In this document: positions 2,246 to 63,417 of the stretch, piece by piece
Position numbering within the stretch: position 1 is the stretch's first letter
How the letters are laid out: each line of letters begins with the position of its first letter
Assembly: GCA_011364925.1 (NCBI GenBank)
Contig: RDOA01000005.1
Coordinates: forward strand, 1-64,000
Length of the DNA: 64,000 bases
Direction of reading: 5' to 3'
Origin: Promethearchaeota archaeon
GTDB lineage: Archaea > Asgardarchaeota > Lokiarchaeia > Sigyniarchaeales > SOKP01
Translations under genes and position numbers: made by a program
Notes under the pieces: generated by a model
Database searches by the model: none
Seen by the model: only the letters and a program-made list of their open reading frames with translations
Told to the model about the DNA's origin: nothing

Positions 2246-3961
2246 ATTACAAATGATAAAAAAAATCAGGAGATTGCATATTTCTCAATGGAAATAGCAT
2301 TAGAAAGCAGTGTCCCAATTTATTCTGGTGGTTTAGGTATTTTGGCAGGAGATGCACTCCGATCTGCTGCAGATATGGGTGTACCGATGGTTGCAGTAAC
2401 TTTAACTTATGATGCCGGTTATTTCTATCAAGAAATTACACCAGAAGGATATCAAGTCGAACATGATATGGAATGGGATTTTAGTAATGATTTTGAGAGA
2501 ATTAATGAGAGAGTTCAACTTAATATCCAAGATAAAGCGATAATTATTGAAGCATGGCGTTATAACATTATAGGAAGAACTGGTCATATAGTACCAGTGA
2601 TTCTACTTGATACAGACTTACTAGATAATGAACCTTGGCAGAGAAAACTTACCCATATTTTATATGATGCAGATAAATTTCAACGGATTACTCAGGAAAT
2701 GATTTTAGGAATAGGTGGACTTAGAATGCTAGATAAATTAGGTTATAACAATATTAAGACCTATCATTTAAATGAAGGGCACGCCGCTTTTTTAATCCTT
2801 GAATTACTTAAAAAATATAAAGACATAAATCAAGTAAAACAAAGAGTTTGTTTCACAACGCATACTCCGGTCAGAGCTGGACTTGAGGAATTTGATTATA
2901 ATTTAGCCAAGGATGTTTTTAGATCTTATTTACCTGATAATATACAAGATTATGCTGGTAAAAATACGCTTAATATGACTATTTTAGCTCTAAATTTTAG
3001 TAGATATGTCAATGCAGTTTCAAAAAAGCATCTTGAAATTACTAAAAGAATGTTTCCTAATTATGATATTGATTCTATTACTAATGGTGTCCATGCAGGA
3101 TATTGGTTATCACCATATATGAGGAATTTTTTTAATAATGAGTTTGGAAGAGATTGGCATCATAATTTGGCACTTTTAAGAGATGCTGAAAATCTTGACA
3201 GCTTTGAACTATGGAGAACACATAATAAAGCTAAGCGTGATTTAATCGAATATGAAAAATCTCATTCATGGATATTGCTAAATGATAGGTTGTTAACTAT
3301 AGGATTTGCAAGACGATTTGCAGAATATAAACGTCCACTTCTAATCTTTTCCGAGATGGAAAAATTAGCTAAGATTATTAAAGGAAAAGCTCAATTAATT
3401 TTCGCGGGAAAGGCTCATCCAGCTGATCTTCAATCAAAATCGCTTATCAAAAAAATATTTGATTTTAGTGATTATTTATGGAATTCATATCAAATTGGGG
3501 TTGTATTTTTAGAGAATTATGAAATTACATTAGCAAAATTATTAACAAGTGGCGTTGATATTTGGCTAAATAATCCAAGAAGATATCTTGAAGCAAGTGG
3601 AACAAGTGGGATGAAAGCGGCATTGAACGGTGTTCTAAATTTAAGTGTGTTAGATGGATGGTGGATTGAAGGGTATAGCATTTCAAATGGAAAAGCAGGT
3701 TGGTCTATTGGCCCCGAACCTTCTGATCCTAATGCTGAAAAGGCAGATGACAAAGTGGATGCTGTAGATCTGTATCAGAAATTAGAAAATGAAATCATTC
3801 CTCTATATTATAATAATCAAGACGAGTGGAGAGAAATGATGAAACAAGCTATTAAATTAGGTGCATACTTTAATACTAATCGAATGGTCGAAGAATATGC
3901 AAGAAAATCTTACAACTTGATAAAGCAACCATTGTGGAAAAGTCAAAACATTGGATTTTAA
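2246..3961 (+). CDS. glgP: Alpha-glucan (glycogen/maltodextrin) phosphorylase; probable ATT start at 2246 (ORF track starts at 2288)
   Basis: IAYFSMEIAL...YSGGLGILAGD, HLNEGHAAF, FARRFAEYKR, EASGTSGMK (PLP lysine); the conserved IAYFS lies upstream of the first ATG. Confidence 0.93.
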   Translation: MTNDKKNQEIAYFSMEIALESSVPIYSGGLGILAGDALRSAADMGVPMVAVTLTYDAGYFYQEITPEGYQVEHDMEWDFSNDFERINERVQLNIQDKAIIIEAWRYNIIGRTGHIVPVILLDTDLLDNEPWQRKLTHILYDADKFQRITQEMILGIGGLRMLDKLGYNNIKTYHLNEGHAAFLILELLKKYKDINQVKQRVCFTTHTPVRAGLEEFDYNLAKDVFRSYLPDNIQDYAGKNTLNMTILALNFSRYVNAVSKKHLEITKRMFPNYDIDSITNGVHAGYWLSPYMRNFFNNEFGRDWHHNLALLRDAENLDSFELWRTHNKAKRDLIEYEKSHSWILLNDRLLTIGFARRFAEYKRPLLIFSEMEKLAKIIKGKAQLIFAGKAHPADLQSKSLIKKIFDFSDYLWNSYQIGVVFLENYEITLAKLLTSGVDIWLNNPRRYLEASGTSGMKAALNGVLNLSVLDGWWIEGYSISNGKAGWSIGPEPSDPNAEKADDKVDAVDLYQKLENEIIPLYYNNQDEWREMMKQAIKLGAYFNTNRMVEEYARKSYNLIKQPLWKSQNIGF

Positions 3962-4187
3962 ACCTACGATCTTAAAGAATCGTTAAAAGTCTTTCAGGAC
4001 AATATTTCTTTTAAATCTAGCTTAATTAAATCAAGCACTTTAGGGATATATAACCTAACAATTTGCGAATCTTGTTTATAATTTTTAGAATAAATATTTA
4101 TAAAATAGTATGTATCTTATAGGCTTAATACGAATTGTTTAGTTCTGAGCTAGAATTCAGAATTAATTTAAATCAAAAATTAAAAAA

Positions 4188-6683
4188 GTGTTAAAATTGG
4201 AAGAAAACGTATTAACTACAGAAGCAGCAAAAACAATGGATATTAAGGAAATATATTCCCAGCTAAAAACTGATAAAACAGGATTGAGTAGTGCGGATGC
4301 AGAAAAAAGGTTAGAACAATATGGTTATAATGAAATTCCTGAGAAGAAAGTTCGACCGATTATAAGATTTCTCAAAAATTTCTGGGGGCCTATACCTTGG
4401 ATGATAGAAATTGCCGCGATTTTATCAATAATAATAAATCACTGGGACGATTTTGCTATAATTACCGCGATGCTTTTAATAAATAGTGTTGTTAGGTTTT
4501 GGGAAGAAAACAAAGCAGATAATGCTATAGCACTATTAAAAGAAAAACTAGCGTTGAGAGCTAAGGTTCGACGAGACGGAAAATGGGATGAAATAGAGGC
4601 TAGGTTATTGGTGCCTGGAGATATCGTTCATCTTAGATTAGGAGATATTATCCCTGCGGATGTAAAATTAATCGATGGAGAATATCTCACAGTCGATGAA
4701 TCGGTTTTAACTGGTGAATCATTACCTGTTGATAAAAAGGTTTCAGATTTGGGATATGAAGGGGCAATAATTCGTCAGGGTGAAATGGATGGAATTGTAG
4801 TAGGTACTGCCTTGAATACATTTTTTGGAAAAACAACGCAATTAGTCCAACAAGCAAAAACAAAAAGCCATTTTCAAAAAGCAATTGTCAAAATTGGTAA
4901 TTATCTTATCATTATAGCGGTTATACTTGTCGTAATTGTATTTATTGTTGGAATCATAAGGGATTTAGAATACTCTGGACACCAGAGTATATTTGGTTTA
5001 CTCCAATTTGCGTTAGTTTTAATGGTAGCTGCTATCCCAGTGGCATTACCCGCAGTTATGATGGTGTCAATGGCGGTAGGTGCAACAAAGTTAGCAAAAA
5101 AAAAAGCCATTGTCAGTAAGTTACTTTCAATTGAAGAGGCGGCAAGCGTAGACGTTTTATGTAGTGATAAAACGGGTACATTAACAAAAAATCAAATTTC
5201 TATTGCTAAAATTATACCCTTTGGTAATTATTCGGAAAAAGATGTCATTCTTTATGGAAGTTTAGCATCAAAAGAGGAAAGTAGAGACCCTATAGATGAC
5301 GCTTTCTTTGATAAAGCTAAAGAAGAAACGGAAATTAACGCTTCGTTATCAGAATACAACCCAATATCTTTTATACCTTTTGACCCAGTAAAAAAACGGA
5401 CAGAAGCAAAATTAAAAAATAATTCGGGTGATGAAATTAGAGTTTCTAAAGGAGCTCTTCAAGTGATTTTAGATTTAGTTAAGAAAGATCAAGCTTTAGA
5501 AGATAAAGTCGATATGCAAGGAAAAGAATTTGCATCTCATGGATTTAGAGCACTTGGAATAGCAAAATCGGAAAATCAAGGGTTATGGGAGTACGTAGGG
5601 ATTGTCGCTTTGCATGATCCCCCTAGAGAAGATTCGCTTGAAACAATAAAAACAGCAAAATCTCTGGGAATAAATGTAAAAATGGTAACAGGAGATCATA
5701 TAGAAATTGCAAAACAAATAGCGGGAAATCTTGGAATTGGCACTAATATTGTTGTTTCTTCAGATATTATAGGAAAAGAAGACGAAAAGACCATAAATCT
5801 AGTTGAAAACGCAGATGGTTTTGCAGAAGTGTATCCAGAACATAAATACCATATTGTGGAACTTCTACAAAAGAAGGATCATGTTGTCGGGATGACTGGT
5901 GACGGAGTAAATGATGCACCAGCCTTAAAAAAAGCAGATATTGGTTTTGCCGTTTCCAATGCAACAGATGCAGCAAAATCTGCAGCTGATATAGTCTTAA
6001 CTGATCCAGGGATCTCCGTAATTGTTAAAGCGACTACAACAAGTCGGAAGATCTTTGAAAGAATGAAAAGCTATGCTGTATACCGAATTGCAGAAACTGT
6101 TCGAATATTGATCTTCTTAGTCCTTTCTATTACAATTTTCGCCTTTTATCCTATAACTGCGATAATGATCGTCATTTTAGCTCTTCTAAACGATTTGCCT
6201 ATAATGACAATTGCATTTGATAAAACTAGAATTGCTGAGAAGCCAGTCAGATGGAGGATGCAAAGGATTTTGATTTTATCTTCAGTATTAGGTATCGCTG
6301 GAGTTATCTTTAGTTTTTCTATATTTTTAATTGGTAAATTTGTATTTCTACTCGGTCTCTCAACGCTTCAAACGTTTATTTTCTTGAAATTGGCAGTAGC
6401 AGGGCATATGACAATATATCTTACGAGAACCGACAAAGATCATTTTTGGAAAAGACCCCTTCCATCAAAAATTCTCTTTATCACTTGTGAATCAACACAA
6501 GTAATAGCAACTATTTTTGCTGCGACGGGAATTTTTATGGCACCAATTGGGTGGGCATTAACAGGTTTTATATGGGTGTTCGCTCTCGCTGCGTTTGTTG
6601 GAAATGACTTTCTAAAAGTAGCGACGATAAAATGGCTTGATAGAAGAGATGCTAGAAAAAAAGAACTGGAAATAATAAAATGA
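4188..6683 (+). CDS. P-type ATPase, type IIIA plasma-membrane H+-ATPase family
   Basis: TGES, IPVALP, CSDKTGTLT, DPPREDS, TGDGVNDAPALKKAD and LNDLPIMTIA motifs. Confidence 0.93.
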   Translation: MLKLEENVLTTEAAKTMDIKEIYSQLKTDKTGLSSADAEKRLEQYGYNEIPEKKVRPIIRFLKNFWGPIPWMIEIAAILSIIINHWDDFAIITAMLLINSVVRFWEENKADNAIALLKEKLALRAKVRRDGKWDEIEARLLVPGDIVHLRLGDIIPADVKLIDGEYLTVDESVLTGESLPVDKKVSDLGYEGAIIRQGEMDGIVVGTALNTFFGKTTQLVQQAKTKSHFQKAIVKIGNYLIIIAVILVVIVFIVGIIRDLEYSGHQSIFGLLQFALVLMVAAIPVALPAVMMVSMAVGATKLAKKKAIVSKLLSIEEAASVDVLCSDKTGTLTKNQISIAKIIPFGNYSEKDVILYGSLASKEESRDPIDDAFFDKAKEETEINASLSEYNPISFIPFDPVKKRTEAKLKNNSGDEIRVSKGALQVILDLVKKDQALEDKVDMQGKEFASHGFRALGIAKSENQGLWEYVGIVALHDPPREDSLETIKTAKSLGINVKMVTGDHIEIAKQIAGNLGIGTNIVVSSDIIGKEDEKTINLVENADGFAEVYPEHKYHIVELLQKKDHVVGMTGDGVNDAPALKKADIGFAVSNATDAAKSAADIVLTDPGISVIVKATTTSRKIFERMKSYAVYRIAETVRILIFLVLSITIFAFYPITAIMIVILALLNDLPIMTIAFDKTRIAEKPVRWRMQRILILSSVLGIAGVIFSFSIFLIGKFVFLLGLSTLQTFIFLKLAVAGHMTIYLTRTDKDHFWKRPLPSKILFITCESTQVIATIFAATGIFMAPIGWALTGFIWVFALAAFVGNDFLKVATIKWLDRRDARKKELEIIK

Positions 6684-7024
6684 AATTAATTTTTATTTTT
6701 TTATAATTTTTTAAAACAAATCATCCAACAATCAGTATTTAGGAATAATTATCATATATTTCTTTTAGTTGGACTAGTATAGTAGCTAAAATATTACGAG
6801 TCATCCTTGAATGAAACCTTTTACATCTTAAAATTGCGAGATCAAAATTTTATTTATACCCTAATGATTATTTACAAAAATAAAGTAAAATTTCAATTTT
6901 TTTAACTCCATCTTACAATTTATTTTTATTCTTTAATGATTTGTAAGGAGAACGCTTATTATATGTATTCAAGTTTGAATATTAAGATTAAAAATAGATA
7001 ATATTGTTATGAGGTGTAGAATTA

Positions 7025-7480
7025 ATGTATAAAAAAATATTAGTCGGAATTGATGGTTCAGAAAGTTCTTTAGATGCAGTTAAAGAAGCATTAGAAATTC
7101 AAAAACGTGATAAAAGTGAAGTTACAGTATTTTATTCACTAACTTATAACCTATATGAATATATACCTACATTTACATTCTTAGGGAGACCTACTTCTGC
7201 TATTCCTTATGCACTTCAACATGAACAAATAAATGAGGTTAACGAACTTTTGAATTCCGTTCAAGAATTATTCGAAAAAGAAGGACAAAAAGTCGAAACA
7301 CGATTGATATTCGATATCAATCCCGAAGATTACATAAAAAAAGTAGCTAAAACGGAAAAATTTGACTTAGTGATTTTAGGGTCAAAAGAAAAACATTCGA
7401 AATTAAAAACCATATTTTCAGAGCCTATTCCGGATAAAGTTGTCAATAGCATTTCTAGTGATGTTCTTGTTGTAAGATAA
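7025..7480 (+). CDS. Universal stress protein (UspA family)
   Basis: MYKKILVGIDGSESS start, DLVILGS, ends SDVLVVR. Confidence 0.9.
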   Translation: MYKKILVGIDGSESSLDAVKEALEIQKRDKSEVTVFYSLTYNLYEYIPTFTFLGRPTSAIPYALQHEQINEVNELLNSVQELFEKEGQKVETRLIFDINPEDYIKKVAKTEKFDLVILGSKEKHSKLKTIFSEPIPDKVVNSISSDVLVVR

Positions 7481-7635
7481 GTATATTCACCAGGTTATAC
7501 TGAAGTCTTTCTTATCATTTTTTTCTTGTTTAAGTATTGAAAGTTTTGATTGAAACAAATTTATTTAAAATTTTTAATGTTAAGGTTTAAATATCCAGAA
7601 TTAATAGGTAAACAAAAATCTCTAAAGTGATTTAA

Positions 7636-8751
7636 ATGAAATTATTTAAAGTAAAAGGTATTATAATCTCTTTACATTTAAGTACTCTATTGATTATAGG
7701 GTTAGTTGGTTTCTACGCTGCAGATTATTATGCTACGATGGTATATGGAAGTAGTATAACGGAACTTATTGTTGTAGGATTAATTAATGGCTTGATTATT
7801 TTATTCTCCATTTTAATCCATGAATTAACTCATTCTTTAATCGCTCAGAAATATGGATTAAAAGTCTCAGAAATAGAATTATACTTATTTGGAGGTGTAT
7901 CTAAAATTGAACAGGAACCTACAACTCCTAAAAGCGAGCTTGTGATTTCGATATTTGGGCCTATTTCTAGTTTAATTATCGGTGGTTCATTTTTGGCAAT
8001 TTTATTTCTAGTGCCAATTAAAATGCTTCCAATCATTACTGTGACTTTATTTTATTCTGGAATATCAAATGTGGGCTTAGGTCTTTTTAATCTTATCCCA
8101 GCATACCCTGTTGATGGAGGACGTGTATTAAGAGCTATTTTATGGCAAAAAAGACATGATATATTATCCGCAACTAAAACGGCTGCTAGAGTAGGTAGCT
8201 TTCTTGCCTATGGATTAATGGCTTATGGATTTATTTCAATGCTATTTTATGGAATCTTTAGTGGTCTGTGGTTAATTATTATAGCATCATTTCTAAATAA
8301 TCAATCAAGACATGCTTACTTACAAACCTTTAATGAAATCGCTCTTTCAAAAGTAAGTGCTAGAGAATTAGCCAGAATATCTGAAGTAGCAATTCCATTT
8401 AATACGATTTTAAGTGAAGCTATTAATAAATTTTTTATGGTTTATAAAAAAACGTACTTTCCAGTATCAAAAGAAGGAGATATAGTTGGGATAATTCACA
8501 TGGAAGATATTAAACATATTCCCTATGATCAAAGAAACCATACGATAGTAGGATATCTTATGAAAAATCTCACTCATTTTCCAATGATCTCTGCAAATGA
8601 TACTGGAAAAGAGGCTTTAAATCAATTAATTAAAATGAAAACTAGACCTCATATAATAGTAGTTAAGAATATTGATCAAGCTAATACTTTAGGTTTTATA
8701 GGAGAAGAAGATATCGTAAGTTCATTGGAATTCTTAAAAAGTCAAATTTGA
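7636..8751 (+). CDS. Site-2 protease (M50) with C-terminal CBS pair
   Basis: HELTH, FNLIPAYPVDGGR, TM helices, CBS-like YFPVSKEGDIVGII. Confidence 0.9.
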   Translation: MKLFKVKGIIISLHLSTLLIIGLVGFYAADYYATMVYGSSITELIVVGLINGLIILFSILIHELTHSLIAQKYGLKVSEIELYLFGGVSKIEQEPTTPKSELVISIFGPISSLIIGGSFLAILFLVPIKMLPIITVTLFYSGISNVGLGLFNLIPAYPVDGGRVLRAILWQKRHDILSATKTAARVGSFLAYGLMAYGFISMLFYGIFSGLWLIIIASFLNNQSRHAYLQTFNEIALSKVSARELARISEVAIPFNTILSEAINKFFMVYKKTYFPVSKEGDIVGIIHMEDIKHIPYDQRNHTIVGYLMKNLTHFPMISANDTGKEALNQLIKMKTRPHIIVVKNIDQANTLGFIGEEDIVSSLEFLKSQI

Positions 8752-9082
8752 TTCTATTCACTTTTTTATTGTCTTCTTTGATAAAGGTATTAATTAAATT
8801 GTATTTTTACATGGATTAGATGGTCTAGACGATGTTATAAAAAAAAAAAAAAAATTATTCTAATGTAAAAAAATCCAACATTCTCTTTTTAATAGTATTT
8901 CGCATAAAATTTGGAATTGAATTTCGTCATTAAAGATATGGGTTAAACAATTAAAAGCGTTATATAGTAAATGAGGTTGAGTATTAATTAAAAGAATGTT
9001 TTAATATTACATAGTAACTTTAATTTGATTAGAAGAAATTTAATTCACACTATTAGTAGAAAAGAATGAGGGAATTGTAAAA

Positions 9083-10189: not shown

Positions 10190-10320
10190 ATTACCATTTT
10201 ATTAATGATATTGATTTAATTTATAACTGTAAAATTAATATTTAAGATGAACTTAAATTTAATTTATCTAATTTATTAAATCTAATATCGAGAATACAAT
10301 TTAATTGAGTGTGAAACTGA

Positions 10321-11373: not shown

Positions 11374-11428
11374 CATTCAATCTGAGTATAAAAATTAGAA
11401 ATTTAACTAAAAAAAAATAATTCTTATT

Positions 11429-11584
11429 TTATTCTTTTTTCAACTTCACACCTGTCCGTTGGATACCTACCTCTTTATTTGATGGTATTGGGGTACCACA
11501 ATGGTCCTTTTTAGCTTCATTAGCTTTAAAGGCTTTATCCAATTCGTCTTCTAGTTCTTCATCTGTGAGTTCTTTATTTGGCAT
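11429..11584 (-). CDS. Small hypothetical protein, 51 aa (not in ORF track)
   Basis: MPNKELTDEELEDELDKAFKANEAKKDHCGTPIPSNKEVGIQRTGVKLKKE*; TATA-like TTAAATA about 22 nt upstream; T-tract downstream. Confidence 0.65.
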   Translation of the reverse strand: MPNKELTDEELEDELDKAFKANEAKKDHCGTPIPSNKEVGIQRTGVKLKKE

Positions 11585-11704
11585 ATATTATAAAGAGAAC
11601 TTGACATATTTAAGGATTTTTTTTATAAAAAATTTATATTTGAAATTAAAAAGAGGAGAGAAGATTCTAATAAAAAAGAAAATTTAAATTTAATTTGAAA
11701 TTCT

Positions 11705-12389: not shown

Positions 12390-12447
12390 ATTTTACACCA
12401 ATTAATTATAATATTTTCTAATTTTATATTGTTTTTAGTAATTCTTC

Positions 12448-14544: not shown

Positions 14545-14572
14545 AATACATACGAACAGTTAATTTTAATTC

Positions 14573-18991: not shown

Positions 18992-19045
18992 ACTTTAATA
19001 TATTAATCTTACTTTCTTGTTTTAACTAACTTTAGGTGGATTATT

Positions 19046-20665
19046 ATAGAGCTAGATATCCTTATAAAAAATGGGAGAATCGTCAATGGAACGGGAAATC
19101 CTTGGTATCCTGGAGAAATTGGAATCTTGGATGGAAAAATTATTCATATTAGTCATAAAATAAAGGAAAAAGCAAAAAAAGTAATTAATGCAAATGGACT
19201 TATAGTATGCCCTGGATTTATTGACATCCATTCTCATTCTGATTACTTTTTACCATTTTCTAGAACTTTAGAGTCAACACTTTATCAAGGTATTACAACT
19301 ACCATTGTAGGAATGTGTGGAGACGGAATGGCTCCAATACCTGAGGGAAGGGAAGAAGAATTCAAAAAGTTAATGTCAACTATGGACCCTGCCCTTGCTC
19401 AATTAGATTATCCATATCACACGTTTGGTGAATATTTAGATTATAATGAAAGAAAAAGAAATTCTTCAAACTTAATATTTGCTATAGGATATGGAAATTT
19501 AAGATGGGCGGGAGGTCAAGGTGGTGAAAATAGACCTGCAACTCGAGAAGAACTAGAGAAAATGAAGTTCTACTTACGTGAAGCATTAGAAGCAGGAGCC
19601 TTTGGAATGAGTACAGGATTGATCTATGCACCTCAAGTTTTTGCCACTACTGGAGAAATTATAGAGTTAGCTAAAGTTGTAGCAGAGTATAATGGATTAT
19701 ACTTTTCACATATCCGAGATGAAAGTTCATCAATACTAGATGCAATAAAGGAAGTAATAGAAATTGTTGAAAAATCTGGTTGTGTTGGGGGACAAATTGC
19801 TCATCATAAAGTATCTGGTGAAGCAAATTGGGGAATGAGTAAGGAAACTCTAAAATTAATTGAAGATGCAAATAATCGAGGGATTAATATTGCTTACGAC
19901 CAATACCCATATAATCGAGGATGGTCAAATTTGATGACAGCTCTTCCTCCATGGGCCCGCGTAGGATCATATGAGGATATTTTGGAACGTATAAAAAAAC
20001 CAGAAATTCAGGAAAAAATTAAGCAAGACATCGAGACCGGAATTGAAGGTTGGGAATCTTGGATTAAAAATAATGGATTTCATAATATTTTTATCTCAAC
20101 TGTTGGGAGTGAAAAATGGAAAGATACAGTGAGTAAAAGTATAACTGAAATTACAAAATTAAAAAAATTTCCTGATGATTTTACAACTTTTTTCCAAATT
20201 TTGATTGATAATAATTTATCTGTTAATATAACAATTAGAAGCATGGCTGAAGACGATATACGAAGAATTATGGTTGGTCGATATCATATGGTTGGTACTG
20301 ACGGTGCTGGAATTCCTGCTGCATATAGTGCTGGTGCGTTTCATCCCCGATTTTTTGGCACTTATCCACGAATACTTGGTAAATATGTGCGAGAAGAGAA
20401 GCTGCTGTTATTAGAAGAAGCGATTAGGAAAATGACATCGTTTCCAGCTCAAAGATTAGGATTAAAAGATAGAGGGCTCATTATGGAAAGATATTGGGCA
20501 GATATCGTCATTTTTGATCCCGATAAAGTAAAAGATACCGCGACATTTGAAGATCCATATCAACTTCCAGAAGGTATCCCATATGTAATCGTAAATGGAG
20601 TAATTGTCATTGAAAACGGGGAAAAAAATAAGAAAGCACCAGGGAAAATTATCCGTCGAGTCTGA
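19046..20665 (+). CDS. N-acyl-D-amino-acid deacylase (amidohydrolase); probable ATA/ATT start at 19040-19046
   Basis: (M)ELDILIKNGRIVNGTGNPW, PGFIDIHSHSD, GMSTGLIY, SHIRDE, HPRFFGTYPR. Confidence 0.9.
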   Translation: MELDILIKNGRIVNGTGNPWYPGEIGILDGKIIHISHKIKEKAKKVINANGLIVCPGFIDIHSHSDYFLPFSRTLESTLYQGITTTIVGMCGDGMAPIPEGREEEFKKLMSTMDPALAQLDYPYHTFGEYLDYNERKRNSSNLIFAIGYGNLRWAGGQGGENRPATREELEKMKFYLREALEAGAFGMSTGLIYAPQVFATTGEIIELAKVVAEYNGLYFSHIRDESSSILDAIKEVIEIVEKSGCVGGQIAHHKVSGEANWGMSKETLKLIEDANNRGINIAYDQYPYNRGWSNLMTALPPWARVGSYEDILERIKKPEIQEKIKQDIETGIEGWESWIKNNGFHNIFISTVGSEKWKDTVSKSITEITKLKKFPDDFTTFFQILIDNNLSVNITIRSMAEDDIRRIMVGRYHMVGTDGAGIPAAYSAGAFHPRFFGTYPRILGKYVREEKLLLLEEAIRKMTSFPAQRLGLKDRGLIMERYWADIVIFDPDKVKDTATFEDPYQLPEGIPYVIVNGVIVIENGEKNKKAPGKIIRRV

Positions 20666-39775: not shown

Positions 39776-39958
39776 AGATTTTTATCACTCTATTATTGAA
39801 AATATATGCTTATTTTTTCTTAAATCCAACATTTTTTTATGTGTTTTTTAATTTTAATGCATAAATTTAAGCAAATTTAATTGGGTTGATCTTAGATTCT
39901 TCATGAGGATTCGTTCAGTGATAATATTGATGACCTCGAGGTTATAAGAGAGGCATTA

Positions 39959-41542
39959 ATGCAAATTGAAACAATCAAAAATGAGAAGGAAAAGAACAAT
40001 CTTATTCAAATAACAATTAACGATTCTATCTCGACAGCTTTTGAAATTGCTGATTCTGGAGAATTTTATGAAGCTGGTGAATTTCTATTTTCAATAACGG
40101 AATTGTTAGAAGAGCTCGTCTCTGTTCAATCTAATAAGTTATATAAATTAATAGTAAAGTATTGGAGCAATGCAATTACTGATCTTAAGATTCAAGGAAA
40201 ATTGCACGAGGTTGCAGAAATTTTCTTAAGAATTGCGGATCTTTATGAGAAAATAAACGACGCTAAGTCGTATAGAAAGAATATTATAGGAAGCATCGAA
40301 TACTTAAAGCAAGAAAGCAAAATTTTAAAAGACTTTAATGAAACGAGAAAATTAGCGCAAAATTACGAGAACATAGCTGGGTTATATCTAAAAATCGATA
40401 ATCTAAAAAACGCAATTAAATATTATTTAAGTGTTGTCAATATTGCTAAAGAGCATGAATATTTTGATTTACTATCTTATTCATATAAACAAATCTCGTC
40501 ATGTTATCAAGATTTAGACGAGATTGAAAAATCTAATGGCATTATTTACGACGGGATAGAGTTTTTCTCGATACTTTTACAAACATTTGAAGAGAAAAAT
40601 GATAATCTCGCGATTTCTCAAATTGCACAAGTTTTAAAGTCTCTTTATCAGATCATCGATGACGAAGAGCAATTTGTTAATTACTCTAAAAAAGAAGCTG
40701 GAGCATATATCAATTTAGCGGAAAGATTAGAGAAAAGCAAAGAAAATTACTATAAAATAGCGAGATATTATCGAGGGGCAGCATTATGTTACCAAGAAAT
40801 AAACAATAATTTAATCGAATCAGCTTCTTGTTTTGTATTAGCTGGAAATTACTCTGAAGGAATTGAGGATTTTAACGAAGCAGCAAACAACTTCTTTAAT
40901 GCCGCAGGGACTTTTAAAGAATTAACCAATTTAGAGATGGCATATAAGCATTATGTGAAAGCAGGAGACAATTATTGGAAAGTTGAGAATGTGAACGATT
41001 CCACAGAATGCTATCTGAACGCTTACGACATTGCAGTAGAAGGAAACTTAGAATACAATCGATTTGGTATTTTCAACCAAATAATAAGAGGGTTGAACAT
41101 TATCGCAAAAGAAGGATTAAAGAATAAAGAATTCTATACCGCAGCAACGCTCATAATGGAAAGCATTAAATTTTATCAACAGCTCGATACTGCAAAAGAC
41201 TTTCTAGTTAACGAAATGCTTAAGAATGTGTATCGGTATTACTACCGGGCGGCGAACTTAAAGAAGATTGGCTATTCCCACATCGTTCAATCATATGTAA
41301 TGGCAGCTATCTCTTCTATTCTTAATGGCAAAACTAAAAAAGCACTCGAAATTCTCTCTGAGATAGAATTAGAAGGAAATACAGTAAATAAATATAAAGA
41401 ATTAGTTAAATTAATTATTAAGTGGGTCTCTGAGGGAAAAACAGTAGACTTTGAAAATTTTCCTTACGAACTACAACGAATAATTCAACACTCAGAGGAA
41501 ATAACATATCTTTTAAAATTCTTTAAGGGATACAAACCCTAA
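39959..41542 (+). CDS. Alpha-SNAP/TPR-like helical repeat protein (possible ATT start at 39896)
   Basis: Repeats such as ESASCFVLAGNY, EAANNFFNAAGTF, MAYKHYVKAGDNY, DSTECYLNAYD. Confidence 0.72.
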   Translation: MQIETIKNEKEKNNLIQITINDSISTAFEIADSGEFYEAGEFLFSITELLEELVSVQSNKLYKLIVKYWSNAITDLKIQGKLHEVAEIFLRIADLYEKINDAKSYRKNIIGSIEYLKQESKILKDFNETRKLAQNYENIAGLYLKIDNLKNAIKYYLSVVNIAKEHEYFDLLSYSYKQISSCYQDLDEIEKSNGIIYDGIEFFSILLQTFEEKNDNLAISQIAQVLKSLYQIIDDEEQFVNYSKKEAGAYINLAERLEKSKENYYKIARYYRGAALCYQEINNNLIESASCFVLAGNYSEGIEDFNEAANNFFNAAGTFKELTNLEMAYKHYVKAGDNYWKVENVNDSTECYLNAYDIAVEGNLEYNRFGIFNQIIRGLNIIAKEGLKNKEFYTAATLIMESIKFYQQLDTAKDFLVNEMLKNVYRYYYRAANLKKIGYSHIVQSYVMAAISSILNGKTKKALEILSEIELEGNTVNKYKELVKLIIKWVSEGKTVDFENFPYELQRIIQHSEEITYLLKFFKGYKP

Positions 41543-51528: not shown

Positions 51529-51622
51529 TAAATGTAGTTCTAAAACCTAAGACAAAATTGTAAAGAAAATTGAAATCAAAATTTCAAAAATAATAAAATC
51601 ATTCTAATTTTATTCTTAATGA

Positions 51623-53077: not shown

Positions 53078-53082
53078 TTTCT

Positions 53083-54716: not shown

Positions 54717-54720
54717 TTAT

Positions 54721-55242
54721 TTAGTACATTTCTGACTTCGAAAACAATAGCGCGAAACAACCGTAAAATATTCCGTTTACAACCCCGCTTATTAAGAATG
54801 CGATCAATGTCATAGTTGGGATGAGTACTGTTATACCATAAAAATTCAATAGTGTAACAGGATTTACGAACGCTAATACGCCTAAAGCTGCAGCACCAAT
54901 CAATGCAGCGAGCATCCAACCTCCAAAGCTACCTCCTTTACCGTCCCCCGTGCGTCCAGCTACTAATGCCGCAACAAATGGAGAAACTATAAATCCAATA
55001 TTTTGAATTAACGAAGCACCAAATAAACCGGAGGAAATATCAGTAAATATTGAAGTGATCACATTTCCCGGCATGTTAATAACAGGGCCGAAGAATATGA
55101 GTAATAAAATTAACGGATCGCTACTTATAGCGCTAAAAAGGAGGTTTAAATCACTACTTATAGTTTGCGCAATTATAACAAATAGGAAGTTTAAACCAAT
55201 AAAAGCCAGTAGACTGAAACCTAGCGCTTTACCTAGCCCGAT
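54721..55242 (-). CDS. Membrane protein; frame extends to a probable ATC start at 55242
   Basis: Open frame (M)GLGKALGFSLLAFIGLNFLFVIIA... continuous with the track ORF 54721-55074; TGA two codons upstream; GAGGT 9 nt upstream. Confidence 0.7.
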   Translation of the reverse strand: MGLGKALGFSLLAFIGLNFLFVIIAQTISSDLNLLFSAISSDPLILLLIFFGPVINMPGNVITSIFTDISSGLFGASLIQNIGFIVSPFVAALVAGRTGDGKGGSFGGWMLAALIGAAALGVLAFVNPVTLLNFYGITVLIPTMTLIAFLISGVVNGIFYGCFALLFSKSEMY

Positions 55243-55472
55243 TTTTCATCAACCTCTTTTTATAATCTATATTCAATTTAAATGTTTGATTCTATGTAAA
55301 AATTATTTAAATTTATTTATTTAAATTTAATTAAGTCCAATTTTTTATGTCGAATTTTATTAATTCTAGAAAATTAAGTTGAAAAAAGCCTTGAATTGGT
55401 GAAAATTACACAAATTTTTAGTAATTTCTTCTATATTTTAATAATTAGAATTTTTAATAATAATTTAAGGTT

Positions 55473-56510: not shown

Positions 56511-56687
56511 AAAAATTAGTTTGGTAACATAAATTTTACTTTTTTAAATAAAGAGATTGGTTATTATGCTAATACTAAGATTTTTATTATTGAATTTTCA
56601 AAACTAATATATACGGGTGTATTTTAAAAATTAATAATAAAGGGTTGTTTTATCAAAATATATATGATTAATATACTAAATTAAATT

Positions 56688-58616
56688 TTGATTATTGTGG
56701 TAAATAAGGAGCTACTTACTATACTGAAATCCATTGGAGAGAAAGCGAAAGGAGAAGCATTTACACTTAAGATGAATTCTCACGTTTTTTTTAACATTTT
56801 GGAATCTAATAACAATTCATTATTGGAATTTAAAGAAGAAATTAAAAAAGAATGGGAAAAGTTTAAAATTTTAAACCAGAATAGAATTATTAAGAAAACT
56901 TACTCTACATTTTTTTTCCAATATTTTCATAACTATTTCAAATATTACCTCCAAAATTTTTGTGGATTTGATACCAGCTCGTTAAAATTGATAATAAAAG
57001 AGAAAATATCTGACGACCAGTTATTTTTAGAGTATAGCTATACCCTATCTCCCGAAGAACAGGATTATTTTCGGGAATTCCGTGAGAATTTTGACGACGG
57101 TGCAGATGGAATAACTACTCCATTTGGTTATCTTTATCTCGTTGTAGCAATTTTGGGAGTAGTGTTAAGAAAGCTTCTGAAAGAAAAATTTTTTATAATT
57201 TTAGATGGAGCTGTATTAAAGAATGGTGAGAATAATAACACTTTAAAATTTCTAGTTGTTATAAAAAACAGTCACGATGAGCTCTTTGCTAACTATTATT
57301 ATATGTATTTAATATATTTTTTGAAATATTTTAAAGATATTCCAAAATCCTATTTTGATAAGCTTCTAAAAGGGAGAGAGAAAGTATATCAGATTGCGAT
57401 TGAAGAATATTCTTTTGCTAAAGATAAACTTGTTGATCTGTTGTATTACTTCTATAAAAAGTGTAATCTCCTTCAAAATTTCTCACCACTTCTAGATTTT
57501 TTAAATTTCGTGTGTAGCCGAGTCGAAGACTCTGTATTTCCTAAATTGGATATCATCAGAAAAGAGTTCTTACAAAACTTTGATTATTCTGAAGAAAAAA
57601 AAAATTCATTGCTTCGAATTTTTGATTTCATTGATAAGAAATCTACCCTATATAGTACATTTCAGGCGAACAACCTCCCAAGCCACAAAGCACAATTTAA
57701 CTTGTTTCTGTTGTATACAAAATACTTTTTTGGCGGTGGAAGCTTAGAGGCTTTGGAAGTTGGAGATTTTTTACTATTACCCGCGGATTTTAAAGAAGCG
57801 TTGAATGCAACCAATAATCAAATCGAAAATACAATTACTGCTACTACTATAAAAGACATTAGAGAATTTTTGGATAATTTTTCAATCGCATCGAATTTAG
57901 AGAATCCAAATCTAATTTTTAGAATTATTTTTGGGAAGGAAATTTCCCAGATTAATTACGACTTCTTTAAAGCTTTCTTACATAGTTTAAACACTAGCAT
58001 TCAGCGTTTAATAGATAAAGAAAATAAAATTTTAGAAGAAGACCCTAACAACGAGCCATTAACCTTTAAGTTAGTAGTTGATCATATTTGTAGGATGCTA
58101 TACACTTTAATAGATAAAATTTTTATAAGAAAACTTCCAGGACAAGCATCTAAAAACTTTATTGACCCTAGAAGCAGATATATTGGGAGAAATATAGCTT
58201 TGAGGGTATTGGAATTGTTCATTTTCAGCGACTTAAATGTCTCAGACGATGTGTGGCCTGATTACATAATAAGTATGAAAAAAGATGTTTTAACAAAAGA
58301 CTTAGAAAAATTCAATGTGAAAATTCCAGAAAATCTGTTCTATAACTACGAAGATATTGCAAGATTCGTCGTTACCTTTAATTTTCTCCCCAGTAATCAG
58401 CCTTTATTCGAAGAATGGGTAATCAATGGAATAATGATGCCGATAAACGAATTTATTTTAAAGATTCATAGTTTAATTAAAGATAAGGCTAAAGGTGTTG
58501 AAATTCACGAAATTCTCTATAATTACTTCATTAATAATATAGAAGGAATAAATAATCATCAAGAATTAGAATTTGTTTGTCAACAGCTCTCCGTTGTTTG
58601 GAACAATTCGAAGTAA
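56688..58616 (+). CDS. Hypothetical protein (helical, F/Y-rich)
   Basis: 642-aa ORF with no motif recognised. Confidence 0.7.
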   Translation: MIIVVNKELLTILKSIGEKAKGEAFTLKMNSHVFFNILESNNNSLLEFKEEIKKEWEKFKILNQNRIIKKTYSTFFFQYFHNYFKYYLQNFCGFDTSSLKLIIKEKISDDQLFLEYSYTLSPEEQDYFREFRENFDDGADGITTPFGYLYLVVAILGVVLRKLLKEKFFIILDGAVLKNGENNNTLKFLVVIKNSHDELFANYYYMYLIYFLKYFKDIPKSYFDKLLKGREKVYQIAIEEYSFAKDKLVDLLYYFYKKCNLLQNFSPLLDFLNFVCSRVEDSVFPKLDIIRKEFLQNFDYSEEKKNSLLRIFDFIDKKSTLYSTFQANNLPSHKAQFNLFLLYTKYFFGGGSLEALEVGDFLLLPADFKEALNATNNQIENTITATTIKDIREFLDNFSIASNLENPNLIFRIIFGKEISQINYDFFKAFLHSLNTSIQRLIDKENKILEEDPNNEPLTFKLVVDHICRMLYTLIDKIFIRKLPGQASKNFIDPRSRYIGRNIALRVLELFIFSDLNVSDDVWPDYIISMKKDVLTKDLEKFNVKIPENLFYNYEDIARFVVTFNFLPSNQPLFEEWVINGIMMPINEFILKIHSLIKDKAKGVEIHEILYNYFINNIEGINNHQELEFVCQQLSVVWNNSK

Positions 58617-58637
58617 ATCCAAAAAGTAAATATCAAT

Positions 58638-59141
58638 TCATGAGATTTCAAATATTTGGCAAAAATCTTCGAAATTATTCTCAACATCAAGTATTGGCGC
58701 CCTAATTTCTTTGATTTGATTAATGTTACTTGTTGTAATTAAACCAGAAATCATTTTAATATAATTATTGAATTGTTCATCTATTTGATTTAAATTTTCA
58801 ACACATAAGATTGTTGGGTAAGGTAAATTCCTAAAACTTTCAAAAAAAAGAATGTCTAATTTGAAAGGGCTCTTTTCTAACCATTTTATCAGATCTTCCA
58901 AATTAATTTCATCTTTAAGAAAAATTGCGCTCTCACCAGCTTTATTCTGTATAATTGAAAAAACTGCACCAGATTTAGAAAATCTATAAGAATCTTTTCC
59001 TTCTTCATCGATTTGGTGTTCGTGTATATATTTTATTACACCTACTTTTAAGTTCAGTTCAAATTTCAATTTACTTATAAGATTCTCAATAAGAATCGTC
59101 TTTCCTGAACCAGAATACCCAATCACATTAATTATTTTCAT
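58638..59141 (-). CDS. mobB: Molybdopterin-guanine dinucleotide biosynthesis protein B
   Basis: GYSGSGKT, IKYIHEH, GKDSYRF..SGA, ESF. Confidence 0.88.
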   Translation of the reverse strand: MKIINVIGYSGSGKTILIENLISKLKFELNLKVGVIKYIHEHQIDEEGKDSYRFSKSGAVFSIIQNKAGESAIFLKDEINLEDLIKWLEKSPFKLDILFFESFRNLPYPTILCVENLNQIDEQFNNYIKMISGLITTSNINQIKEIRAPILDVENNFEDFCQIFEIS

Positions 59142-59263
59142 TTAAAACTGCCAAATCTTAACTTTTTTAAAAAATCCTAGAGATTTAATATAAGTATTAA
59201 TATCTAAAAAGTGTTAAAAGAATTAACTTTCCATTGAGACAAACGAAATAGTTCCGTCTAATC

Positions 59264-61264
59264 ATGACCACGAAAAATGAAATAATTGTATTCGACGCCA
59301 ATTTCTTTATTTGCATGAATTCCATTCGAGCAAAAAACATACTGGAAAATTTAAAATCAGCTGCTTCAGATCTAGGTTTTGTATATTACACAAGTACCGT
59401 TGTCTTTGATGAAATTAAAGCCTCGAGTACGTATCGAGACAAGTTTCAAAACATTATAAAAGTTGAAAAAATAGAAGAATTAGAGATTGACTCAATTAAA
59501 AACGACCTAAGCACTGAAGGTATTCGTTTTCCTGCTCAAGATCCTGATTTATCCTTATTATCATTATCTCAGAAATTACTCGATGATGACAACAATCGTA
59601 TGATCAATTTAGTTTCAGACGATTTTAAACTTGTAAAAAATGCTAATATATTCTTCCATGGAAAAATAAATATTTTGTCTCTTTCGAGTTTTTTATTAAA
59701 AATCCATAGAACAATCCCAAATAAACAATTACGAAGCTATTTTAAAAATTTATGGAAAAAAAGTTTGAACTACACCTTAGCATATATGATAGAACGCTCT
59801 AAAATCTATCCTGCTGAAGAAAAGATCACATGGTTAATTGAAAAAGCAATAAGTGTTACCCAAGACTCAATTATTACCCAAGATGCGCGCTATGGTGATA
59901 ATCAAAAGGATCATGTTAAATTTGAGATTGGAAAAAGTAAATACGAGAATGAAATTACTATTTGTGAAAAATATATTGGAAATCAAAAACTTGCGAATAG
60001 TGAAGAAAAATACCTTACGGGAATAATCAATTTCCTTGAAAATTTAAAAATATCTCGCGAGTATGTAATACAAGCTCGCAAGGCGATTGAAAAACAGGAA
60101 TCAAAAGATGCGGTAAAATATTTAAAAAAGGGAAATGGATTCTTAATTTCGCTTTTGCAAATTGCTTCAGGGCAGTTATCCAATCCCAAGGATTATGAGA
60201 TTGTCGAACAATTAATCTGTAGCGAAATTTCAAAGATGGAGTTCTTAAGAGCCTTCATCTTAATTTCGTTAGGAAGGGTTAATAATGCTATTGATTCGTT
60301 AGAACGAGCAGCGCTTTTTTCTACGATAATTCATAATCATCAAACTTGTTTAACTTTAAATTATGTAAAAGCCTTAATCCTTTTGTTTCATGGGTTATAC
60401 AACAACGCGATTATGGCATATAACTTTACGGAAGAGCTAGCAGACATCTATAACGATGAACGCCTTAAACTCAAATGTGCTATAGGAAAAAGTATAGCGC
60501 TTTATATTCAAGGTGAGGATAGCGAAACAGCAATGGCAATAATGGAGGAGATTTCATTAATGGACATGGAGAAAAACTTCTTAGACGCGGTTATCGTATT
60601 TGGCGAGCTCGGGGATTATTTCTTAGCCTTAGGTCACTCCCAATTAGCAGCAAATTTGTATAATGAGGCGCTAGAAATAAGTATTGACTACAATCTCAAG
60701 ATCAGGAGCGATATTCTCATAGAAAAATTAAAACGTTCATACATCGCAACAGTTCTGAATGGGTATTCCACAGAGGATATTATGGTTGATAAATTGGATG
60801 TCTTGCTTAATAGGGCTTACGCAGTAAAGGAAATTGAGAAATATAATGAACAGATTAAGAAAATATCTAGCTTTAACATTTTATTTTATACACCCTTTCC
60901 CTATATCACTGGTAAAAAAAAATTAGTCCCATATATAAAACTTCCTAAAGAGCTACAAGAGGATTATTTAGAAGTTGTTCATTTCGAAAAAATTGGTGAC
61001 AAAGATGGCTCTAAATATCTTTTCGTAGTTTCTCACTATGAACTTGGATTACTTGGAATTATTCTAAAGACTGATGAGAGGGTAACTGGTATAGCAGAAA
61101 ATTATACTTTGAAATTAAAACCTACATCAAAAGTTAAAATCTACAATCCATCCGCAAATTTAAAAGATACCTACTTGGTTAGAGCGATCGTAGAGGTTGT
61201 ATCAAAAGATGAATGCGAAATTGTATATTCACTACCTTCTTTCTTTAAGGCGTTAAATATATAA
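59264..61264 (+). CDS. PIN-domain protein with TPR-like helical repeats
   Basis: VFDANFFI, DPDLSLL, VSDDFKL; ELGDYFLALGHSQLAANLYNEALEI repeats. Confidence 0.72.
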   Translation: MTTKNEIIVFDANFFICMNSIRAKNILENLKSAASDLGFVYYTSTVVFDEIKASSTYRDKFQNIIKVEKIEELEIDSIKNDLSTEGIRFPAQDPDLSLLSLSQKLLDDDNNRMINLVSDDFKLVKNANIFFHGKINILSLSSFLLKIHRTIPNKQLRSYFKNLWKKSLNYTLAYMIERSKIYPAEEKITWLIEKAISVTQDSIITQDARYGDNQKDHVKFEIGKSKYENEITICEKYIGNQKLANSEEKYLTGIINFLENLKISREYVIQARKAIEKQESKDAVKYLKKGNGFLISLLQIASGQLSNPKDYEIVEQLICSEISKMEFLRAFILISLGRVNNAIDSLERAALFSTIIHNHQTCLTLNYVKALILLFHGLYNNAIMAYNFTEELADIYNDERLKLKCAIGKSIALYIQGEDSETAMAIMEEISLMDMEKNFLDAVIVFGELGDYFLALGHSQLAANLYNEALEISIDYNLKIRSDILIEKLKRSYIATVLNGYSTEDIMVDKLDVLLNRAYAVKEIEKYNEQIKKISSFNILFYTPFPYITGKKKLVPYIKLPKELQEDYLEVVHFEKIGDKDGSKYLFVVSHYELGLLGIILKTDERVTGIAENYTLKLKPTSKVKIYNPSANLKDTYLVRAIVEVVSKDECEIVYSLPSFFKALNI

Positions 61265-61265
61265 C

Positions 61266-61538
61266 CTAATATTTTCTTAATTGTTTATCTCGTTGGCTAA
61301 CTTGATGACCGTGAATAGCACAACTTATGCAGTAATAATTCTTCTTACTGGGGGTCTGAATAATAGTCCCTTCTTTCTTGAGTTCTGTAAACATTCTCCC
61401 ATCGACTAATGAAACTCGTCTTGTGACAGCTTTTGCTTTACTACGAGGTACAAAACGCCCACACTTATAACATTGAACGCGATTATAATGACCCTTGCTT
61501 GAGCCACTTTTTCCGCCACTTCTTCTTTTTTTAGGAAT
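61266..61538 (-). CDS. rps26e: 30S ribosomal protein S26e, ATT start (not in ORF track)
   Basis: (M)PKKRRSGGKSGSSKGHYNRVQCYKCGRFVPRSKAK...YYCISCAIH...KY*, 90 aa. Confidence 0.95.
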   Translation of the reverse strand: MPKKRRSGGKSGSSKGHYNRVQCYKCGRFVPRSKAKAVTRRVSLVDGRMFTELKKEGTIIQTPSKKNYYCISCAIHGHQVSQRDKQLRKY

Positions 61539-61662
61539 AAAAATCAGCTTTTTTTTCTGTTTTCTACATCTTAGAATAAGACAAACCTTAAAAAATTTAT
61601 TCTTTCACTGTGAAAATTAGCATAAACGTACTCATTTTTAGCTTTATTTCACGAAGAAATGG

Positions 61663-62358
61663 TTAACTTTCATTGATCGCTTCGATTTTACTTAAAGCTT
61701 TAAAAGAATATACTAACCTTTGAATCACTGTCAAAATGAGTAAGCCTGTGAATACTATTGTGAAAATAGGAAAAAACAAAGTGAAAGGCGCTCCATACAA
61801 AAGATTAGAAATGAAATAGATCCAATACTCAATAATAAAGGCTAACCAAAGAACAATCATTCTTTCAGCTCTTTCCATAAAACCTACGCCTTTCATGTCA
61901 ATACCCTCGTTTTCAGCTCTCGCGCGAACATACGAAATCATAATGATTAAAAACATAATCGCAAATCCAATTAGATAATTGAAATAACCCCCTATTATTA
62001 ACCCTAAAACTAGTAAAGCATCAGATAGTCGATCTAGATTCGAATCTAAAAAAGCTCCTGATTTTGAAATATTTTCTGTCCTGCGAGCAACTTCTCCATC
62101 AAAAACATCAAAGGCTCCTGCCCAGAACATTGTAAATGGGACAATCCACGCTATTTGAAAAGGAAAATGCAACCCTCCGTACGCGAGTAGAACAGCTACT
62201 ACTACAGAACAAAAAAATCCGCAATAAGACAAGAAATTTGGTGTAAATCCATGTTTAATTAGTATTTTGACTGGATAATCAACAAATTTATTTAACAGTC
62301 TTCGCTGGTTATTCCGTTTTGCGTTAGCTTGTTCAGATTTGCTCAAATTTTCAGCCAA
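61663..62358 (-). CDS. CDP-alcohol phosphatidyltransferase (archaetidylinositol phosphate synthase-like)
   Basis: TPNFLS, DVFDGEVAR...GAFLDSNLDRLSD, SYVRARAE, ERAER. Confidence 0.9.
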   Translation of the reverse strand: MAENLSKSEQANAKRNNQRRLLNKFVDYPVKILIKHGFTPNFLSYCGFFCSVVVAVLLAYGGLHFPFQIAWIVPFTMFWAGAFDVFDGEVARRTENISKSGAFLDSNLDRLSDALLVLGLIIGGYFNYLIGFAIMFLIIMISYVRARAENEGIDMKGVGFMERAERMIVLWLAFIIEYWIYFISNLLYGAPFTLFFPIFTIVFTGLLILTVIQRLVYSFKALSKIEAINES

Positions 62359-62410
62359 TATTAGTTTTATCGATAATTAATTTTAAAAGTACTTTAAAAT
62401 AAAAAATTTT

Positions 62411-63007
62411 TCATACTAATAATTGCAGATTGATTTTGATTAAACGAATCGTGGAAGATGCTAAATATGAGCGATGTCCTAAGCTCAGATTTGTCAAATT
62501 CATCTTTTTCAATTCATTATCAATTAGAAAATCACCGCTTTGATCTCCAATGAGAAATAATAAATTATCTTTTGACTTCAATTTCCTAAACTCTTTTCTA
62601 TAATCATTACCAGATTCGTTTAACACATATATTTTATAATTTCGTTTAGTAAAATCCCTAATTGCATCAAAAATACTTTTCTCGGAGTATATTACTGATT
62701 CAAGTGTTTTAGGGTGGTTTTCTGTTTTGGTCTTATTCTTAATCAAGCCTACAAAAGAATCTGTCAGTAAAATTTCATTTTTCGGAAAAGTCTCATTATT
62801 TAGATAATTAGAATCAAAGATATATGTTCCATAATTATCAAGAAAAATCCAAATTTGAATATCTTTTTCAATTTCTTTTTCATTTAGAATAGCTGATAAG
62901 ACACATCTTGAAATAACATCAAGCCTTCCAGATGACCCCGGGATATCTTTGATATTATACTTACTGATGTTAACAGTTGCTGATTTTAAAAAATAGATAA
63001 TACTCAT
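62411..63007 (-). CDS. trmY: tRNA pseudouridine(54)-N1-methyltransferase (SPOUT)
   Basis: GSSGRLDVISRCV, FLIGDQSG, LSLGHRSYLAS. Confidence 0.8.
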   Translation of the reverse strand: MSIIYFLKSATVNISKYNIKDIPGSSGRLDVISRCVLSAILNEKEIEKDIQIWIFLDNYGTYIFDSNYLNNETFPKNEILLTDSFVGLIKNKTKTENHPKTLESVIYSEKSIFDAIRDFTKRNYKIYVLNESGNDYRKEFRKLKSKDNLLFLIGDQSGDFLIDNELKKMNLTNLSLGHRSYLASSTIRLIKINLQLLV

Positions 63008-63114
63008 TAACTTAAAGCCGATCTAATCGAAATATCTGGTCTATTATGATTAGGAATACCACATTTGGATATATTATTTACTTTTTCGACCTAAAAACAC
63101 TTCTGAAATTCCTT

Positions 63115-63417
63115 TTACTTTACCTTTCTCTTTTTAAAGCGAGCAATTAAATAAAAAGCACTCATCATGATTGTTATCGAAAGTACAATTCCGAGAATTC
63201 CAGCAATATAATCATTATTAAGCCAAGATAAAATAGGAATCCAAGGTGAAAATAGATTATCGAGCCAATCTTCACCATGATAATCAATTAAGACTCTTTC
63301 TAAACCATCAGGAGCATTAGAAAGAAATCCAATCCTAAATCCTACTGATATTACTAACATTAATGAAGTGATAACGATTAATATAACAATTAATGGCCAT
63401 TTATTCCTTTTTAATAT
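63115..63417 (-). CDS. PDGLE-domain (CbiN/NikN-like) ECF transporter component; probable ATA start
   Basis: SNAPDGLERV; frame extends upstream as (M)LKRNKWPLIVILIVITSLM to an in-frame TGA at 63450 with no canonical start. Confidence 0.82.
   Translation of the reverse strand: MLKRNKWPLIVILIVITSLMLVISVGFRIGFLSNAPDGLERVLIDYHGEDWLDNLFSPWIPILSWLNNDYIAGILGIVLSITIMMSAFYLIARFKKRKVK

Follow-up and report, generated by a model that had tools for sequence, protein, structure and literature searches.

Probable translation starts at ATT, ATA and ATC codons in six genes of a Lokiarchaeia-type archaeon and in other genes of its genus

Six genes within a 64,000-nucleotide stretch of DNA from an Asgard archaeon of the Lokiarchaeia type are very probably genuine, with translation beginning at AUU, AUA or AUC. 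The stretch (G000:C70:1-64000, hereafter the window) belongs to G000, the genome under study, a metagenome-assembled genome (MAG) of 3.92 Mb in 112 contigs with 33% GC. The six encode a glgP-like alpha-glucan phosphorylase, a D-aminoacylase-type amidohydrolase, a SNAP/TPR-like protein, a small multi-pass membrane protein, the ribosomal protein eS26 (rps26e) and a PDGLE-domain membrane protein (Table 1). An earlier note on this DNA had listed five of them, with the SNAP/TPR-like gene as a possible sixth, and had suggested aligning orthologous starts, counting such cases across the genome and inspecting the gene for the initiation factor aIF1. As it had described, in all six frames the upstream stop is followed by conserved N-terminal sequence before any ATG, GTG or TTG (together, canonical starts) occurs. 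At the start position of each stands ATT, ATA or ATC (collectively ATH, or AUH in the mRNA), with a Shine-Dalgarno (SD)-like motif, such as GGTGA, AGGTG, GAGGT or GGTTGAT, at a spacing of 4-9 nucleotides (nt) upstream. The window has about 56 real genes, of which the six make up about 10%, in agreement with the note's figure of about a tenth.

We identified the genes by Pfam profile matches, translated their frames and read the sites directly. For each gene, homologues were then sought in up to 42 genomes of the genus and the DNA was lined up at the start. The relatives used are Promethearchaeota (Asgard, Lokiarchaeia-type) MAGs from many independent projects, and the order to which G000 belongs also includes single-contig genomes, one of 4.36 Mb and one of 6.04 Mb. 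Such alignment of orthologous starts revealed that ATG, GTG and TTG interchange with ATT, ATA and ATC across independently assembled members of the genus. Third-position discrimination in this genus therefore appears, from these comparisons, to be low enough for all of these codons to replace one another at orthologous starts.

Table 1. Genes with probable or candidate ATH starts; positions without a contig prefix refer to the window.
Gene or product	Location	Strand	Start region and remarks
glgP-like alpha-glucan phosphorylase	2231..3961	+	SD AAGGTG 2231-2236, TAA 2237-2239, ATT 2246-2248, stop at 3961
D-aminoacylase-type amidohydrolase	19034..20665	+	SD AGGTGG 19034-19039, start ATA 19046-19048
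SNAP/TPR-like protein (548 amino acids)	39883..41542	+	SD-like GGGTTGATC 39883-39891, TAG 39893-39895, start ATT 39896-39898
Small multi-pass membrane protein (173 amino acids, no Pfam family)	54721..55256	-	SD-like GAGGTTGAT 55256-55248, in-frame TGA TGA, start ATC 55242-55240
Ribosomal protein eS26 (rps26e, 90 amino acids)	61266..61548	-	GCTGAT motif 61548-61543, start ATT 61538-61536
PDGLE-domain membrane protein (102 amino acids)	63115..63437	-	Downstream of CbiM-like gene; SD GGAGTGA 63437-63431, start ATA 63423-63421
aIF1/SUI1	G000:C86:10208-10534	+	Outside the window; ATT start after in-frame TGA
eS27	G000:C28:20424-20666	+	No canonical start before Pfam domain; ATA about 20460, opposite ATG in G017
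eS28	G000:C54:14712-14963	-	No canonical start before Pfam domain; ATC about 14960, next to TTA opposite TTG in G017

The ribosomal protein gene rps26e gives the most direct view of this exchange. Reading from its ATT yields xPKKRRSGG, the first canonical start lies 48 codons downstream, and positions 1-93 of the Pfam profile Ribosomal_S26e align to residues 1-89, with profile position 1 falling on the ATT codon itself. Across 29 genomes of the genus, including that of the window, the codon before PKKR is ATT in 18, ATG in eight, TTG in two and CTG in one, this last being immediately preceded by an in-frame TAA. In other Lokiarchaeia families the codon is ATG in 12 of 20 genomes and ATT in 3 of 20, these three including the complete genome of 6.04 Mb, with a TGA three codons upstream. 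The earlier note had cautioned that an in-frame CTG upstream of rps26e might serve as the start. This CTG sits within a conserved GCTGA(T) motif of varying frame and is out of frame in several genomes of the genus; it is therefore not the start. The motif itself is found 3-10 nt before the rps26e start in nearly all genus genomes, regardless of the start codon. It departs from the usual GGTGA core and could be either a weak SD or a regulatory site.

A similar degree of conservation was seen for the glgP-like gene, the product of which matches Pfam Phosphorylase with 131 bits. Its SD lies 9 nt before the ATT, and its first in-frame canonical start is ATG 2288, within the conserved AYFSME motif. 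The arrangement AGGTG-N7-10-ATT is retained in seven of eight orthologues in the genus, six of these seven having stops directly upstream in frame; the remaining orthologue has an ATG displaced by one codon. All 22 paralogues sampled (about 49% identity) have ATG. In the small membrane protein gene, the frame reads TGA TGA AAA ATC and the first canonical start comes 57 codons further down. Here the start column holds ATG in 17 orthologues, TTG in eight, GTG in two and ATC in three (the window, G024 and G061).

For the PDGLE protein, where the Pfam match is weak (20.6 bits, under the cut-off), three ATA codons follow GGAGTGA, at 63426, 63423 and 63417. The earlier note had left the choice between 63423 and 63417: the former lines up with the ATG of the closest orthologues (M-S/G-I/V-I-K-R/K-N/Y-K-W) and is favoured, and the latter can be set aside. 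ATA occupies this column in three genomes (the window, G011 and G030), with ATG or TTG in the rest. The aminoacylase gene, whose product matches both Amidohydro_3 and Amidohydro_1, has a TAA at 19004 and, after AGGTGG, the codons ATT 19040, ATT 19043 and ATA 19046. Its first in-frame canonical start, TTG 19127, lies beyond the conserved DILIKNG N-terminus. Among the codons that the earlier note had considered, it is ATA 19046 that falls exactly in the column where all 29 other homologues in the genus have ATG (M-x-Y/F-D-I-I before IKNG). The SNAP/TPR-like gene, with a 39-bit match to Pfam SNAP, has its ATT directly after a TAG, and its standing as a possible sixth case is borne out by the G017 orthologue, in which GGGTTGAT-N5-ATC follows an in-frame TGA, ATC occupies the same column and no canonical start appears until 81 codons further on. 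The comparison at this gene is of ATT with ATC only and draws on the DNA of that one orthologue. At the protein level, 31 of 38 matches in the genus align from query residue 1 and the others from residues 3-22, and the full-length open frames of the homologues span just 543-558 codons, reaching no more than a few codons beyond this point.

Since ATH makes up 9.7% of internal codons, the probability of finding it by chance at all six aligned start columns is about 1e-6, so that the set is far beyond chance. We extended the analysis to the genome by comparing stop-to-stop translations of G000 with those of relatives and scoring orthologue pairs. Within the genus, the comparison DNA came to 734 kb (G017 contig 11, 535 kb, and G016 contig 77, 199 kb), and conserved shadow open reading frames (ORFs) were removed by a longest-ORF filter before pairs were counted. 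Genes were selected if eight or more residues aligned ahead of their first canonical start, and were then inspected. A strict same-column tally of the partner codon at the orthologue's first canonical start was dropped as too noisy, because the SD itself often contains a GTG or TTG that counts as the first canonical codon, and because N-termini carry indels. Among 450 orthologue pairs, 38 G000 genes (8.4%) had at least eight aligned residues before the first canonical start, as did 43 of 450 genes (about 10%) in the two genus relatives. On inspection, about 17-19 G000 genes (about 4%) have clear ATH starts. In these, conservation starts at ATA, ATT or ATC about 6 nt after GGTGA-type motifs, and the partner often carries ATG or TTG opposite the ATH. 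Examples include eS27, with ATA in G000 and ATG in the partner, eS28, with ATC, a ThiF-like protein and a small GTPase, the latter with ATA in G000 and ATT in the partner. Taken together, these counts suggest that a few percent of genes, some of them essential, use ATH.

The non-canonical codons found at starts are nearly all ATH, the exceptions being one CTG and one possible GTT. Association with SD sequences was also assessed. In 10 of the 26 best-conserved cases, an ATH that has an SD match of 5 nt or more lies no more than a few codons from the point where conservation begins, compared with a rate of 3% at random internal positions; when the same test was run with control codons, AT-rich sets gave 1-2 of 26 and Lys/Glu codons 6 of 26. 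Upstream of the first canonical start, a 5-mer SD precedes 5.0% of in-frame ATT codons, 4.4% of ATA and 2.5% of other codons, ATT and ATA being the top two codons by this measure. For the genome as a whole, a 5-mer SD is found at only 13% of first canonical starts.

To place these figures, we ran the identical pipeline on four further Lokiarchaeia lineages, with about 380 kb taken from each. By this pipeline, 5-8% of G000 genes have conserved sequence ahead of the first canonical start, and in three of the four other lineages the figure is roughly 1%. Clear cases on the side of the other lineage came to 1 of 123 pairs for the single-contig genome G055 (the S26e ATT), 1 of 121 for G044 (the RNA polymerase A' subunit) and 1 of 200 for G042. 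The G060 side is ambiguous, with 10 of 166 pairs flagged, mostly split genes or weak alignments, and a few clear. The G000 partners in these same pairs numbered 10 (G055), 8 (G044), 10 (G042) and 10 (G060), against few on the other side; the ATH habit, as judged from these sequences, is therefore strongly enriched in this genus and is not confined to it. This rate above that of other lineages, together with the exchange of canonical and ATH codons at start columns, the rarity of non-canonical codons other than ATH and the alignment of internal ATH with Ile, supports the earlier note's proposal that third-position selection of start codons is relaxed in the lineage, and with it the claim that standard gene callers would truncate genes. 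In G044:C1, the single-contig genome of 4.36 Mb, the RNA polymerase A' subunit apparently starts at an ATC 7 nt after AAGGTG, opposite an ATG in G000, as the lone ATH case in an otherwise canonical lineage.

Sequencing or assembly errors, in the form of miscalls or of homopolymer indels beside out-of-frame ATGs, could mimic ATH starts, and the earlier note had raised homopolymer errors as a caveat for the glgP-like gene and for the start at 55242. Out-of-frame ATGs do occur near three of the sites (2253 before A8, 55249 before A5 and 63400 before GG), and the change from ATG to ATA in the aminoacylase gene is found in G000 alone among the genus homologues compared. Error is nevertheless a very improbable explanation, since MAGs from separate, independent assembly projects share identical ATH codons at matching columns, the homopolymers lack conservation (the A8 run near the glgP-like start is specific to this genome), spacer lengths vary, and no mid-gene frameshifts were seen in the long ORFs of the window. 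The homopolymer idea fails because the out-of-frame ATGs come from conserved residue pairs or from chance: ATG 2253 is the product of an Asn-Asp/Glu pair (AAT GAx) and ATG 63400 of a Lys-Trp pair, both also present in orthologues with canonical starts, and ATG 55249 is a chance occurrence missing from the other ATC-bearing genomes. The caveat thus falls away, and on the evidence of these alignments the sequencing-error and frameshift readings are removed for five of the six genes. It might also be supposed that the true start is a downstream canonical codon, with the conserved upstream stretch an untranslated leader, or that the genes are decaying; each gene does have some downstream ATG or TTG, the one that standard callers pick. 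We consider this highly unlikely, as such starts would cost the proteins essential parts (eS26 would lose its first half, zinc-ribbon Cys pair included, the phosphorylase its AYFSME motif, two membrane proteins their first transmembrane helix and aIF1 half of its SUI1 fold), and as amino-acid conservation reaches the ATH codon and ends there, usually with an in-frame stop just upstream.

Forms of recoding were also weighed, namely a programmed frameshift from a nearby ATG, coupling of termination to reinitiation, or a second initiator tRNA reading AUH. Reinitiation is plausible at the PDGLE gene, where the ATA follows the stop of the upstream CbiM-like gene by 1-4 nt. The glgP-like, aminoacylase, membrane protein and rps26e genes, on the other hand, have 120-230 nt intergenic gaps or divergent neighbours upstream, so that with four of the six genes so placed, coupling cannot be general. 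As for a frameshift, orthologues of the glgP-like, PDGLE and membrane protein genes share no conserved slippery site and no conserved out-of-frame ATG, and one glgP-like orthologue (L037) has no ATG anywhere in the region. The free exchange with ATG, GTG and TTG at the same column fits a single initiator reading near-cognate codons, and recoding of any of these kinds seems unlikely overall. Reassignment of ATH to Met was likewise considered. The partner of an internal ATA, ATT or ATC is Ile in 63-68% of cases, and the five commonest partners do not include Met; what is seen is therefore a phenomenon of initiation and not a change of code.

Initiation at AUH by the ordinary initiator also has several points weighing against it. 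The aminoacylase ATA, being unique to G000, may reflect a miscalled base or a recent mutation that destroyed the start, and some candidates in relatives could start at a GTG or TTG embedded in the SD, although this is not so for the six genes of the window. The genome-wide rate depends on the alignment threshold: the strictest criteria give 2% and the loosest 8%. In addition, no recognisable tRNAi(CAU) was found in the G000 MAG using ARAGORN with and without introns, the Rfam tRNA model across the whole genome and two regular-expression searches. About 24 tRNA genes were detected by Rfam, and fewer by ARAGORN; many of them measure 85-160 nt and contain unusually placed introns. This incomplete and intron-rich tRNA set leaves room for an unusual tRNA of the kind that a second initiator would require. 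Finally, the G042 lineage has an aIF1 gene starting at ATA without raised ATH use, and the link to aIF1 set out below is only suggestive.

How AUH might be used can be outlined from known initiation systems. An SD-anchored 30S complex would place AUH in the P site, where ordinary Met-tRNAi would pair with the first two bases and tolerate the third-position mismatch, as at bacterial infC and pcnB. With stringency low in so AT-rich a genome, changes from ATG to ATH would be nearly neutral or would act as expression tuners. Inspection of aIF1 bears on how this stringency might be held. G000 has a single SUI1 gene, with no canonical start before the zinc knuckle and its first Met deep within the SUI1 fold, and its frame reads TGA AAA AAG AGT ATT AAA GAC GAC GAC ATT TGT. 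This ATT is kept in all 28 of the genus genomes in which the gene was found, with an almost invariant leader and an in-frame TGA. ATA is the start in the f7 family and in two genera of the f2 family, and other Lokiarchaeia lineages have TTG, GTG or ATG. In Sulfolobus, aIF1 discriminates against AUU in vitro (PMC4705826; see also PMC6237735), and bacterial IF3 is autoregulated via the AUU/AUC start of its own gene, infC (PMC5499595). By analogy with infC and IF3, a feedback loop through AUU-started aIF1 is plausible, in which aIF1 made from its conserved AUU would hold stringency at a level where AUU still works. It is possible, if doubtful, that AUH forms a third regular class of start in the genus, that aIF1-AUU feedback sets the stringency and that the ATH genes form a stringency-responsive regulon, whose members would then include eS26, eS27, eS28, a TFB-like zinc-ribbon gene beyond the window (G000:C70:67381-68340) and aIF1 itself. 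The first three of these are small-subunit proteins that all lack a canonical start. The idea that an ATH start on aIF1 predicts high ATH use was tried and given up: G042 and G060 both have aIF1 at ATA, the former with about 1 in 200 pairs and the latter with mostly weak cases, and no clear correlation emerges.

The closest parallels are bacterial infC (IF3) and Escherichia coli pcnB, in which an SD-led mRNA starts at AUU or AUC with the normal initiator tRNA, the weak codon being under the control of a fidelity factor (PMC5499595; PMC4705826). As with infC, a fidelity factor here, aIF1, carries a strictly conserved AUU. Unlike those isolated bacterial genes, the cases described here probably make up a few percent of genes, in an archaeon with eukaryote-type aIF1 and aIF2, and autoregulation, established for infC, is for aIF1 a possibility suggested by analogy. 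For comparison, annotated non-canonical starts in bacteria amount to 0.004-0.024% of genes (PMC5499595). In Deinococcus deserti, non-canonical starts have been proven by N-terminal proteomics for four genes (PMC2830850). There, as here, essential genes are involved (dnaA and rpsL, at ATC or CTG), predicted starts were wrong and proteogenomic correction was needed. That organism is a bacterium with four genes supported by peptides; the candidate genes described here, identified from sequence, are many more. In animal mitochondria and Mycoplasma-type genomes, ATT, ATA and ATC are routine starts (NCBI tables 2, 4 and 5). The likeness to these systems lies in ATH serving as a regular initiator in an AT-rich genome; unlike them, with their reduced machinery, this archaeon has a full archaeal initiation apparatus, and unlike in mitochondria, where internal ATA is Met, internal ATH here aligns with Ile. 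Mycoplasma gallisepticum is also mentioned for non-canonical starts (PMC5499595). Eukaryotic eIF1, the homologous factor, is described as autoregulated through a poor initiation context (Ivanov et al. 2010, as cited in PMC6237735), and in both cases a weak start on the factor's own gene would tie its synthesis to the stringency that it imposes. For eIF1 the weakness lies in the Kozak context of a scanned AUG; for aIF1 it would lie in the codon itself, behind an SD. In Haloferax, ribosome profiling has revealed near-cognate alternative sites (PMC7261190). The literature searched contained no account of Asgard archaea initiating at ATH.

These starts have consequences for annotation. Prodigal-type callers accept only ATG, GTG and TTG and would therefore truncate or miss a few percent of the genes of these Asgard MAGs, among them those for ribosomal proteins, aIF1 and membrane proteins that lose a first helix or signal sequence. 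Such miscalling would skew gene catalogues, completeness estimates and structural predictions for the archaea that are used to reconstruct the origins of eukaryotes. Archaea and eukaryotes share start-site selection of the eIF1/eIF2 type. A lineage tolerant of third-position mismatches on such a scale would offer a natural system in which to ask how the stringency of start selection is set and how it evolves, all the more useful because its own aIF1 gene appears to be AUU-initiated.

Two further genes outside the window were noted in the course of the genome-scale comparison. A SelD/AIR-synthase-like gene (G000:C94:2767-3741, minus strand) has an in-frame TGA directly before SCKLG that is kept in G017; it was set aside as a likely case of selenocysteine. 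A small MoaD/ThiS-like ORF (G000:C39:19412-19768, minus strand) has GTT where the G017 orthologue has ATT, both after GGTGA, and this single case may hint that third-position tolerance reaches GTG-type starts.

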